Notes: generated by a model from the letters alone, not told the origin. Positions 5,990-21,132 are shown, counted from the first letter of the stretch. The stretch is DNA of 64,000 nucleotides from an uncultured Planctomycetia bacterium (GCA_964580675.1 CAZOLI010000009.1:7008-71007), one strand, 5' to 3'. Translations and numbers: made by a program.

Positions 5990-7150
5990 TTTATTGGAGC
6001 GGTGTGAAGAATCATCTTTGCCCTCGTGATCCGTTCCGACCTTTTTTGCAAAGGCAGATGTTTTCGTTCCAGTTGGAACGGTTTTCCCTACACACTGGGG
6101 GCGGAAGCATCCATGCTTTCGCATGTTTTATTTTTCAGGAATCACGGCCTCCCTTCCACAGGCAATCTCAACCGGGCCTTCATGCATTCTCTTTATCTTT
6201 ATCCTTATCCTTATCTTTATCTTAAAAACGCCCCCTCCGTCACCGTCGGGGCTCCGGCTTTGGTGAAAAAGTCTGCTATCAAAATCTCTTTCGTTCCCTA
6301 TCACCCGGACTCCGCTCCCCTGCTCAACCCCTTACTCCTGACTCCTTACTCGTAACGTATGCTCGCCTCTTTATCTTTTTCCTTATCTTAATATTTTAGA
6401 AATACCCCTCGTGACTTATTTTTCCTTCCCCCCGGCTGAACGGTTCTACATTTGATCCCTTACTCCTGATTCCTTACTCGTAACGTATGCTCGCCTCTTT
6501 ATCTTTATCTTTATCCTTATCTTTATCTACGGTCCTGCGGACCGTCCCATTCCCCTCCCTGATAAAAGATGGCGTGCCGTTTAGGCACTCCCTGCTTCCA
6601 TCGGATTCCGTCCGGTTGGTGCTCCTGCTTTGGTGATAAATGGCCCGCTCCGTGACCGTCGGTGCTCTGGCTTTGGTGATAAATGGTCCGTTCCGTGACC
6701 GTCAGTGCTCCTGCTTTGGTGAAATGGTTTTTCTTCAATCGCCTATCGCCCGCCGTTTTCACGCCCAACGCACCACGCATCACGCATAACGCTACTAACG
6801 CCAATAACGCAACTAACGCCACAAACGCCACGAACGCAATAATCCTTATCTTTATCAACGGACCTGCGGACCGTCCCACTGGGGGCGGAAGGGTCCTCGC
6901 TTTCGCATTTATTTGATAAATCATCCACCCTGGCTGGACATCCCTCGATCGCCAAACCGGGTCTGTCTATGTTCTCTTGATCTTGATCTTTATCTTGATC
7001 TTAATCTACGGTTCGAAGAACCGTCCCACGGTCGGGGCTCCGGCTCTGTTGAAATGGTTTTCCTTCAATCGGCTATCGCCCGCTGTTTTCACTCATCAAC
7101 CCATCAACGCAACACGCATCAACCCATCACCCCATACTCAACTCATCATC
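5990..7150. repeat. Composite non-coding repeat mosaic, locus 1
   Basis: YTTATC runs at 6192, 6370, 6498, 6844 and ~6976. A 50-bp direct repeat at 6329-6378/6457-6506. The GTCGGKGCTCYGGCTTTGGTGA-like module at 6241, 6617, 6656, 6697 and 7028. AACGCNNNN x6 at 6788-6841 and CATCAACC-like 8-mers at 7094-7150. Confidence 0.9.
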
Positions 7151-19289: not shown

Positions 19290-19635
19290 GGGTGTAAATC
19301 ATCATCTTTGCCGTCGGGGTCCGTCCCCGACCATATTTGGCAGGGATGCCTTCACCCCAATTCCGTATTGTTCCCTTGTTTCGGAAGAATCCGGGACCCC
19401 GAACATTTCCACCGCGGGTGGACGTATTCTCGCCTCTTTATCTTTATCCTTATCTTTATCTTAATCCACGGTCCTCCGGACCGTCCCGTCCCCCTCCCTC
19501 ACGGTCGGGGCTCTGGCTTTGGGGAAACAACCGTCTATAACAATCTCTTTTGCTCCACAGCACACCAGCCCCCGTGCTCCTCCGCTCCCCTGCTCAACTC
19601 CTCACTCCTTACTCCCCCCTCCTTACTGACCCACT
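19290..19635. repeat. Composite non-coding repeat, locus 2 (homologous to locus 1)
   Basis: 19422-19499 is nearly identical to 6483-6560, 19500-19630 aligns with 6241-6350, and 19291-19350 aligns with 6001-6060. Confidence 0.9.
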
Positions 19636-19644
19636 GTTGAGTCC

Positions 19645-21132
19645 TTACAGACCGCTACGAACAAAATTTAGGGTGTTTTCCTCGTCATCCCGAACGACCC
19701 GGACCGGCCCTTTTCGTTCTTTGTCCACGTTCAAACTCACGTCCCCGATGGTCAGGACGGAGTCCGGAAATACTTTTTTTCGGATAATGATCTCGGGGAC
19801 TTCCTGACTCTCCGTCCGGCTTTTCAATTTTTTCACTCTTCGGCCGAGGCGTTTCGACTTCGATTTCAGCTTCTTCATGTTCCGAACCATATCGAGTATT
19901 TTTTCCACCTTCTCCTCCGGCAGTTCCTTCAGCCGTTCCCGCGTAATTTCCCGCTGACCAATCCTTGTTTCCAAATATTCAATCTTCTCCTGTACTTCCT
20001 CCTGCTCATTCTGAAGATCCTTAATTTCCCTGTAAGCATGCGTGGACACCCCGGTAATTACGATTGTCTCCTTCCCCATTTTCGATCCGATCACACCAAC
20101 CTCCACCGTGTTCAGGGCCACCACTTCGCCGCCCATTAATCGACCGCCGGGGGCCCTCAGGGCATCCATGGTGTTTATTTCGCTATCAATGATCTCCCCA
20201 TTCACCTCCACCTTCCCCGTGGCCGTTACATCACTCTCGTTTATGTACCGTGCGACGACGTTCCCCCCCGCTTCCAGTCTGGCCTTTTTCCTCCCCTTCA
20301 CGCCCCCTTTTGCACGGATGTCTCCCCCTGCCTCGACCTGAGCAGCCTGTACGGTTCCCTCCACCACAACATCTTTCCCGGCTTTCACCTTAAAATTATC
20401 TCCAATTTGACCCTCTACAAACACGGTACCCGAAAAATCCACGTTTCCCACGTCATAATCAATATCCCCCTCCACGCGATAAACGTCCGAAACCTCCAGT
20501 ATACCGTCCTTTTTCTGAACAAGCCCACTCTCCGTCGCTGCATAAGTCCGTGTTTCCTCGTTGTATTCTACGTTTTCCCCCGGCTCAAATGGAAGATCCT
20601 CGTCCCCGAATAATTCTATTTTGTTACCGAATACGTCCACACCCGATTCTCCTTCAGCGTCCGATTTCAATGTTCCGATGGGGTCTCCCCTGGACACGGA
20701 CTGAACGTTCTTTCCGGCCTCCTCACGAAAATCAACCTGATCATTCTCATCCGTCTCGTCCTCATCAGAATTTGAACGAAGATCTTCCGACCACTCCACG
20801 GCTTTTTCCCGTTTCTGCTCCAGTTCCGGCTTCTTTCCTTCCGCTACCTGTATCGGTTTCAGTTCCTCCTGTTCAGAAATCGCCTCCTTGATCTCTTCCT
20901 TTGCGTTATCCCATTGTTCAGGATCCACGTTGACGCCCAATTCCTCCAGAAATCGGTGGACGTCCGTTGTGTCATGGATCAATGTTGAATCACCCGTATT
21001 CTCCTCATCCTCACCCAAACGTTCCGAACCAATCCGGGAAATTTTGACGTATCCCTTTACGGGAGGATCCGACACGAGAAACGAGCATTTAAATGCCCGG
21101 TTTACGAGTTTTCGAGATGCCAATTCTTTCAT
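19645..21132 (-). CDS. FapA (DUF342) family protein
   Basis: VEGDIDYDVGNVDFSGTVFVEGQIGDNFKVKAGKDV beta-helix, C-terminal coiled coil and IIIRKKVFP. Confidence 0.85.
   Translation of the reverse strand: MKELASRKLVNRAFKCSFLVSDPPVKGYVKISRIGSERLGEDEENTGDSTLIHDTTDVHRFLEELGVNVDPEQWDNAKEEIKEAISEQEELKPIQVAEGKKPELEQKREKAVEWSEDLRSNSDEDETDENDQVDFREEAGKNVQSVSRGDPIGTLKSDAEGESGVDVFGNKIELFGDEDLPFEPGENVEYNEETRTYAATESGLVQKKDGILEVSDVYRVEGDIDYDVGNVDFSGTVFVEGQIGDNFKVKAGKDVVVEGTVQAAQVEAGGDIRAKGGVKGRKKARLEAGGNVVARYINESDVTATGKVEVNGEIIDSEINTMDALRAPGGRLMGGEVVALNTVEVGVIGSKMGKETIVITGVSTHAYREIKDLQNEQEEVQEKIEYLETRIGQREITRERLKELPEEKVEKILDMVRNMKKLKSKSKRLGRRVKKLKSRTESQEVPEIIIRKKVFPDSVLTIGDVSLNVDKERKGPVRVVRDDEENTLNFVRSGL

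Follow-up and report, generated by a model that had tools for sequence, protein, structure and literature searches.

Extragenic palindromes assembled in mosaics, and short tandem arrays between genes, are already known from several bacterial groups. The repetitive extragenic palindromic (REP) sequences of Proteobacteria, with REPINs and bacterial interspersed mosaic elements (BIMEs), are short, GC-rich and species-specific, occur in tens of copies, and lie in mosaics behind genes; for the E. coli REP elements in the malE-malF spacer it has been shown that the upstream message ends in a protected stem. The BOX elements of Streptococcus pneumoniae (boxA-B-C) are modular intergenic repeats that fold as RNA and can alter the expression of neighbouring genes, and the short tandemly repeated repetitive (STRR) sequences of heterocystous cyanobacteria are arrays of short units that fill intergenic DNA. 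At the porcine circovirus origin a hairpin is directly followed, in fixed phase, by tandem hexamers. In Neisseria, the NTS/SRM hairpins are oriented, number in the hundreds, lie in mosaics around genes and are read as single-stranded DNA by the Ssn nuclease (Chenal et al. 2025, PMC11893778). Here we describe a hairpin repeat found in a 64,000-nucleotide stretch of the genome of an uncultured Planctomycetia bacterium (GCA_964580675.1, CAZOLI010000009.1:7008-71007, or C9:7008-71007; hereafter the window). The hairpin, with a 7 bp stem and a 3-nucleotide loop, caps the 5′ end of a composite module in which one linker base and then about five GATNAN hexamers follow it. The module in turn is one building block among several in a kit of non-coding repeats specific to this lineage, and not a dedicated switch. 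We refer to the strand that reads hairpin and then GATNAN as the R strand, which in the window is the minus one.

A genome-wide scan of the kind suggested in an earlier note on this sequence, using a covariance model together with regular expressions, finds 40 copies of the hairpin in the draft genome (3.57 Mb in 179 contigs, 84% complete, 53% G+C). Because the assembly breaks at exactly these repeats, copy numbers are lower bounds. There are several consistent features. First, every one of the 40 copies is separated from a (GATNAN)n run by exactly one linker base (A in 30, G in nine, T in one), and no palindromic copy is present away from a run anywhere in the draft genome. The converse fails, in that among 62 strict GATAAR runs about one third are without a hairpin, its place being taken by a T-rich linker of 8–9 nucleotides. 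Second, the hexamers are mostly GATAAR and 26 of the 40 runs have five units; positions G1, A2, T3 and A5 of the hexamer are conserved both here and in a sister genus, and positions 4 and 6 vary. Third, contrary to what had been claimed from the window alone, the loop does not vary freely: on the GATNAN strand it reads TTC (17 copies), GGA (10), GCA (4), GGT (3), TGC (2), TTT (2), ACC (1) or AGA (1), which places a GNA loop on one strand or the other in 33 copies, against about one in eight for random triplets, although shared descent inflates the count. Fourth, the 5′ flank of the hairpin on the R strand is GGG in 20 copies (the CCC noted behind all four window copies thus extends to only half of the family), and GTAG overlaps the 3′ foot of the stem in 30, with GTGG there in nine. 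Finally, all 40 copies lie outside long open reading frames (ORFs).

The family is closest in general character to REP/REPIN sequences and BIMEs, with which it shares the tens of short, GC-rich, species-specific extragenic palindromes, the combination of palindromes with other conserved short motifs in extragenic clusters behind genes, the presence in the genome of Y1 (RAYT or IS200-like) genes embedded in the mosaics, and, plausibly, a function in blocking exonucleases at the 3′ end of mRNA. It departs from them in that no Y1 gene is flanked by this hairpin and there is no GTAG 5′ of the stem, in that copies are single and directly oriented, with neither inverted doublets nor alternating Y/Z units, and in that a perfect 7 bp stem with a 3-nucleotide loop is phase-locked to a tandem array of hexamers, which REPs lack. 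Five families of arrays with units of 6–8 nucleotides (GATAAR, TRAGGAG, GGCGATW, ATTTCGN and GTTKATNN) fill intergenic DNA in the manner of STRR sequences, but the phylum and the units are different, the arrays here have about five units and are joined by fixed linkers and hairpins, and one array type always has the option of a capping hairpin. With BOX elements the family shares modularity and an intergenic setting, but no sequence relation or module logic, and BOX elements have no tandem hexamer arrays. Like the NTS/SRM repeats, these are oriented hairpins clustered in mosaics around genes; unlike them, they show no resemblance to the NTS consensus CGTCATTCCCGCGMAVGCGGGAATCYRG, and the genome holds no small GIY-YIG gene of the Ssn type, its only two PF01541 matches being in frames of 443 and 570 amino acids that are not near arrays. 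The hairpin with adjacent hexamers in fixed phase recalls the origins of circoviruses and other single-stranded DNA replicons, but the loop has three nucleotides and no nonanucleotide nick site, the 40 copies are chromosomal, and no viral or plasmid Rep gene was seen beside them, although no search was aimed at Rep. What is new is the repeat family itself and the phase-locked composite of a hairpin and five hexamers with a defined active strand.

Variation within the stem is informative as to what is conserved. The stem ACGGTCC/GGACCGT is present in 22 copies, and a subfamily of seven copies carries ACGGTTC/GAACCGT, the compensated change from C-G to T-A that had first been noticed at one window copy. 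Seven more copies have a 15-nucleotide form, ACGGCC-TTC-GGCCGT, that has lost one base from each arm, a further 15-nucleotide copy has G.U as its first pair, and three copies are imperfect 17-nucleotide hairpins. In the sister genus the hairpins are ACGGCCC-TGC-GGGCCGT, GCGGCCC-TTC-GGGCCGT, ACGGTCC-ACA-GGATCGT, ATGGTTC-CGC-GGACCGT and ACGGTCG-TTC-GGGCCGT, the CCC/GGG variant of the stem still being paired, and the runs are of the GATTAC, GATCAA or GATGAA type. In an alignment of 22 distinct sequences, 96.8% of cells are paired, against 20–45% when the 3′ partners are slid, and two pairs have both partners changed (U-A to C-G and C-G to U-A). One-sided changes occupy six cells, all of them G.U on the R strand; likewise, an unbiased scan upstream of all runs yields 7–8 G.U pairs and no A.C (two-sided sign test, approximately 0.01–0.02).

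The predicted folds of four wobble-bearing copies from the sister genus show the same asymmetry. As R-strand RNA all four keep the hairpin (−7.3, −8.3, −9.2 and −12.8 kcal/mol), and as RNA of the opposite strand three lose it, the fourth, with its wobble in the terminal pair, keeping a 6 bp stem (−11.4). When they are folded as R-strand DNA, one hairpin disappears (−1.2) and two become weak (−3.7 and −3.9). Because changes are two-sided at two positions, a deletion of one pair is tolerated, G.U is confined to one strand and 96.8% of cells pair, there is support for selection acting on the folded stem and not on a double-stranded palindrome, two possibilities that the earlier note had left side by side.

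The position of the repeats relative to genes also has a preferred direction. Among the clusters, 16 have a co-directional gene 5′ of the hairpin, six have an opposed one, and in eight the gene is missing at a contig end. Where both flanking genes are called, nine clusters lie between tandem genes, three between convergent and one between divergent genes, numbers that are too small for significance against a genome-wide background of 66% tandem, 17% convergent and 18% divergent gene pairs. In several arrays the hairpin starts 14–26 nucleotides past the upstream stop codon, and for half of the runs the gene ahead is convergent, with its 3′ end toward the run. Runs also stand on the sense strand about 10–12 nucleotides upstream of three tRNA genes and one gene for a four-helix-bundle protein; other tRNA genes mostly have ordinary sigma-70 promoters resembling TTGACA/TATAAT. 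Strand-specific wobbles, folding, orientation bias and these sense-strand runs are the reasons for taking the R strand as the strand that matters. The tRNA genes concerned are Met-CAT, Lys-CTT and Arg-TCT (C66:5994-6194, C62:11710-11877 and C3:106666-106870), and at all three loci a conserved core of about 50 nucleotides (GCCGTTT...ACGYTCGATGA) lies beyond the run and is followed by a second, inverted run.

We tentatively read the module as a REP/BOX-like repeat whose hairpin may act in the transcript, as an exonuclease block beside an AU-rich cleavage tract, and we give this a probability of about 0.42. The working form of the hairpin would be a single-stranded fold of the purine-rich GATNAN strand, most likely as RNA, which fits somewhat better than DNA. 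Read-through from an upstream gene would yield ...ACGGUCC-NNN-GGACCGU-N-(GAUNAN)5..., in which the stable hairpin would stop 3′-to-5′ exonucleases and the adjacent unstructured, AU-rich hexamer tract would serve as an entry site for an endonuclease of the RNase E type or as a platform for protein binding. The upstream message would thereby end in a protected stem, and the module itself would spread as a selfish repeat. Transcription of the R strand and the roles in exonuclease blocking and cleavage are putative. A hairpin for RNA stability, one of the functions proposed in the earlier note, is the candidate function that best matches the strand asymmetry, folding and orientation bias.

Several observations weigh against this interpretation. 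The covariation derives from few independent events (two two-sided pairs), with related copies inflating the counts, and template switching between the arms can keep palindromes perfect without selection. The excess of G.U could stem in part from strand-biased C-to-T and A-to-G mutation, and single-stranded DNA, too, would favour G.U, to a lesser degree. A GNA loop of three nucleotides with a C-G closing pair is typical of the classic stable mini-hairpins of DNA, a type to which the motif GCGAAAGC of module D, another part of the kit, also belongs, whereas selected RNA hairpins usually have tetraloops. The orientation is a bias and not a rule, as six of 22 clusters are antisense (two-sided binomial p of about 0.05), and it is based on crude gene calls, made from long ORFs only and with no gene finder. 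Copy number differs about 10-fold between the two genera, which, together with the unshared sites, fits a selfish repeat better than an RNA signal under host selection.

The asymmetry between strands would also arise if the hairpin, with or without the run, were a single-stranded DNA element recognised by an HUH/Y1 enzyme (a RAYT or an IS200-like TnpA) that copies the module or moves it, with activity restricted to the GATNAN strand as in IS608 or REP-RAYT; a nuclease end of this sort had been put forward in the earlier note, and we regard it as unlikely but a serious contender. The genome does encode candidate enzymes, with four IS200-like genes (NF033573, above cut-off) and one RAYT gene (NF047646, 99.7 bits). 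Three of the IS200-like genes are inside the same mosaics, 0.5–1.3 kb from hairpins and with the arrays pointing toward the gene each time, and at C104:5520-5600 the hairpin and run lie 5 nucleotides from a GTAGCCCGGGGCAAGG hairpin (arm GTAGCCCGGGGCAAGGAGGC) of the kind that flanks the IS200-like gene of C100 (C100:5090-5160), a junction that may be a recombination or insertion breakpoint within the loop of the C100-type hairpin. A mobile element of this type is in keeping with G.T pairs on one strand only, with the GNA triloop and its C-G closing pair, with the high, variable copy number and with sites that are not orthologous, and the bias in gene orientation is also expected from lagging-strand targeting, known from IS608 and ISDra2. 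However, the direct flanks of all five Y1 genes lack this hairpin (0 of 5 flanks inspected, in a genome that is 84% complete) and each has inverted repeats of its own (GCGCCGGAGGCGC.., GTAGCCCGGGG.., TGGATCGTTTGGAACG.. of a family of about 16 copies, AGCTCCGGAGGAGCGG.. and GCCGGTGAGGGCACCGGC). The hairpins form single copies and direct arrays without the inverted doublets of REPINs, GTAG overlaps the 3′ foot of the stem and is not 5′ of it, the Y1 genes of the sister genomes are on contigs other than those of the module, one of these genomes (G003, 76% complete) has the module and no Y1 match, and one wobble-bearing copy fails to fold as DNA. It is again unlikely, in our estimation, that the module is a functionless selfish or by-product repeat, spread by recombination and slippage, with a palindrome kept by template switching. 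The highly variable module order and the tandem duplications within arrays are as expected of such a repeat, as are the load of short repeats in the genome, the lack of site conservation between genera, and the symmetric changes, including the one-pair deletion, which are the outcome predicted of arm-to-arm correction; the covariation amounts to only two two-sided pairs. That process does not predict imperfect copies with G.U on one strand only, though, nor does a functionless repeat readily account for a composite kept with 1-nucleotide spacing and 4–6 hexamers across genera whose compared proteins are mostly 33–50% identical, for a run length held tightly around five units, unlike that of a freely slipping microsatellite, or for a hairpin that never survives away from its run.

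A protein could instead read the whole module, if one oligomer bound the hairpin and the phased GAT triplets together on single-stranded RNA or DNA. There are precedents in TRAP, which binds GAG/UAG repeats, and in the Rep protein on hexamer iterons beside the circovirus origin hairpin; the fixed phase of hairpin and run, the conservation of G1, A2, T3 and A5 with variable positions 4 and 6 in both genera, and the peak at five units are all compatible with such a site. Array kinds of the same kit, moreover, bracket in inverted orientation the genes for PF05635 four-helix-bundle proteins (the 23S-rRNA-intervening-sequence/Avd family), and PDB 2gsc, the single relative found with a solved structure, is an entry of five chains; another relative, bAvd, forms pentamers. 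Nothing ties a candidate protein to the hairpin itself, however, and the genome has only two or three PF05635 genes; as their cassettes carry runs without hairpins, the connection is a lead only, and we rate joint recognition as quite improbable. A more specific version is a longer shot: the hairpin-capped GATNAN arrays and the arrays of 7–8-nucleotide units would be single-stranded RNA or DNA sites for a ring-shaped PF05635 oligomer, one subunit per unit, and the mosaics would be footprints of a protein-guided cassette system and not of a transposase. Least credible, to the point of being nearly dismissed, is a double-stranded operator for a dimeric transcription factor, also raised in the earlier note, or an intrinsic terminator. 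A perfect 17 bp inverted repeat with a variable centre is operator-like, but the 15-nucleotide variant shortens the spacing of the half-sites by 2 bp, the half-sites change together, one-sided changes are strand-asymmetric, and, of the 13 clusters for which both neighbouring genes are called, just one occupies a divergent promoter region; as to a terminator, there is no T-run after the stem on either strand (AGATAAAG on one, CCC on the other) and a terminator scan raises no flag.

Some simpler candidates were rejected. The run reads (DK)n in one frame, in which the changes TCC-to-TTC and GGA-to-GAA are synonymous, but GATTAA stops that frame, 17- and 15-nucleotide hairpins shift it, and there is no conserved ORF. 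As a sigma-70 promoter the run has no match to a −35 element, a promoter scan flags nothing in the array, and the frequent convergent genes are in the wrong direction. At loci with divergent runs no covariation is visible by eye between the variable positions 4 and 6 of the two runs; pairing between them was therefore discarded as the reason for which the GAT.A. pattern is kept. A search with the Rfam 15 covariance models gives no match to the hairpin at gathering score or at E up to 1.

Two Y1 loci have repeats of further interest. Inverted copies of GGAATGGATCGTTTGGAACGCCCCATA, with about 16 in the genome, flank the IS200-like gene of C150 (940–1000 and 1640–1680) and are REPIN-like but distinct from the hairpin described here. 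REP-like hairpins GCCGGTGAGGGCACCGGC surround the RAYT gene of C135 (140–260, 950–1010, 1150–1180, 2380–2420 and 2850–2940), near which lies an ORF that, by eye, may be a cas2 gene.

The module has a narrow distribution. The strict pattern of hairpin and run has no match in 40 relatives, in about 185,000 species sampled by one genome each, or in metagenome contigs; a relaxed pattern applied to 56 genomes of the class has matches in the same family only, and the covariance model, which recovers the 40 copies at home, has just one weak match (E 0.004) across 150 further genomes of the phylum. Among relatives the module is confined to three genomes of a sister genus within the family, where the composite architecture, with its exact 1-nucleotide spacing and 4–6 hexamers, is kept at non-orthologous sites. 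The genes that these sites adjoin have homologues here without the module, with a single exception, a gene whose array lies on its opposite side. The repeat family must be old enough for two diverged genera to have it in common, although its sites turn over and its copy number is so unequal. A 21-mer of the run alone has 33 unrelated single matches in the collection scan, and among the metagenome matches listed for the relaxed pattern one conserved coding sequence dominates, making them uninformative on true relatives. As to insertion polymorphism, two flanking proteins are each found on one other assembly only, from the same sample, and the contigs break within the repeat.

Annotation of the modules genome-wide gives an R-strand grammar of [H]-R-A-S-B in tandem repetition, where H is the hairpin and R the run, with the alternatives D-H-R, F-E-H-R and P-H-R and with tails of R-W-T and longer. 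Module A (GAGGCGAGCATACGTTACGAG, about 22 copies in the genome) is the commonest sequence directly 3′ of a run and module B (AGCCCCGACCGTGAGGGAGCGGG) the commonest 5′ of a hairpin. Modules S and W are arrays of TRAGGAG heptamers and GTTKATNN octamers, module T includes GGCGATW heptamers, and ATTTCGN heptamers form an array without a label. What stands between B and R is a hairpin in about 17 cases and a T-rich linker in 13, from which it follows that the hairpin is an alternative connector and not a simple insertion. In palindrome-associated transposable elements (PATEs), the miniature derivatives of IS200/IS605, one strand has similar subterminal hairpins at its two ends and insertion is 3′ of a fixed tetranucleotide; the arrays here often start with a hairpin, and their far ends vary. 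Short repeats with at least five copies make up about 1.4% of the assembly in 293 regions, an underestimate because contigs break at repeats.

The features of the window, together with the cassettes around PF05635 genes elsewhere, are listed below. All four hairpin copies that the earlier note had reported are present where it placed them, as is the YTTATC run beside each; it had not recognised them as modules of a larger mosaic repeat. The pattern ACGGNNC-N3-GNNCCGT has four matches in the window against 0.13 in shuffled sequences, none of which reached four. The hairpin of copy 1 folds as RNA at −11 kcal/mol (z −3.4). Copies 1–3 are in one mosaic array, of module order T,H,R,D,H,R,T,B,F,E,H,R,A,(short R at 6370–6387),A,B,R,D on the minus strand, flanked by two minus-strand genes for a B12-binding mutase subunit and a TPR/alpha-CTD protein; copy 4 is between convergent genes, behind a gene for 495 amino acids (19645–21132, minus strand).

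Coordinates of repeat features in the window and of arrays around PF05635 genes (positions are in the window unless a contig is given; hairpin sequences are those of the minus strand, with the plus strand in brackets).
Feature	Position	Strand	Sequence or remark
Hairpin, copy 1	6529–6545	−	ACGGTCC-GCA-GGACCGT (ACGGTCC-TGC-GGACCGT); perfect 7 bp stem
Run of copy 1	6498–6527	−	(GATAAR)5; single linker base 6528
Hairpin, copy 2	6858–6874	−	(ACGGACC-TGC-GGACCGT); one mismatch, A.A on plus and T.T on minus strand
Run of copy 2	6839–6856	−	short, 3 units, GATAAAGATAAGGATTAT; linker base 6857
Hairpin, copy 3	7008–7024	−	ACGGTTC-TTC-GAACCGT (ACGGTTC-GAA-GAACCGT); compensated TTC/GAA subfamily
Run of copy 3	6977–7006	−	GATTAAGATCAAGATAAAGATCAAGATCAA; linker base 7007
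Hairpin, copy 4	19468–19484	−	ACGGTCC-GGA-GGACCGT (ACGGTCC-TCC-GGACCGT)
Run of copy 4	19437–19466	−	linker base 19467
Run without hairpin	6192–6221	−	preceded by module B and T-rich linker cgtttttaa
Whole mosaic array with copies 1–3	6040–7130	−	about 1.1 kb; pieces recur up to about 79 times in genome
Module A	6477–6497	−	GAGGCGAGCATACGTTACGAG; second window copy 6349–6369
Module B	19490–19512	−	AGCCCCGACCGTGAGGGAGGGGG; further window copies 6231–6253 and 6644–6666
GATAAR hexamer arms around PF05635 gene	C66:6077-6800
CGAAATY heptamer arms around PF05635 gene	C63:3500-4010		cassette between two efflux-pump genes
GCCGATA heptamer arms around PF05635 gene	G003:C168, ~1300–1900	reverse	sister genome

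Other members of the kit have features of their own. Module S (6320–6350, 6455–6480 and 19590–19640 of the window, minus strand, and many other arrays) presents repeated perfect motifs like the Shine-Dalgarno sequence on the R strand and repeated CTCCTTA motifs, like the anti-Shine-Dalgarno sequence, on the other. On the plus strand, opposite the R strand, module D (6101–6135 and 6880–6915) is terminator-like, with a 9 bp stem that includes a G.U pair and a T-rich tail; its minus strand has the mini-hairpin GC-GAAA-GC, the flanking bases of which covary between copies (CATGC/GCATG and TTGC/GCAA). A separate foldback family of about 145 nucleotides (C90:4070-4220 and some 40–59 other places) has 21-nucleotide inverted ends AAAAAAATAACGYGYACTCCG and an inner hairpin, GGACGGC-GTT-GCCGTCC, that likewise has a 7 bp stem and a 3-nucleotide loop.

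The encoded proteome is very acidic, and the lineage is, by this sign, probably salt-adapted. Its genome combines hairpins and arrays of 6–8-nucleotide units like a construction kit, and the same arrays bracket the genes for four-helix-bundle proteins. If the module does act in the transcript, a two-part signal, an exonuclease-stopping hairpin with an AU-rich cleavage tract, would set the 3′ ends of messages and their relative stability, and such a signal would be transferable and testable in reporters. The phase-locked hairpin and array, with its clear active strand, offers a good handle toward a protein that reads such arrays.

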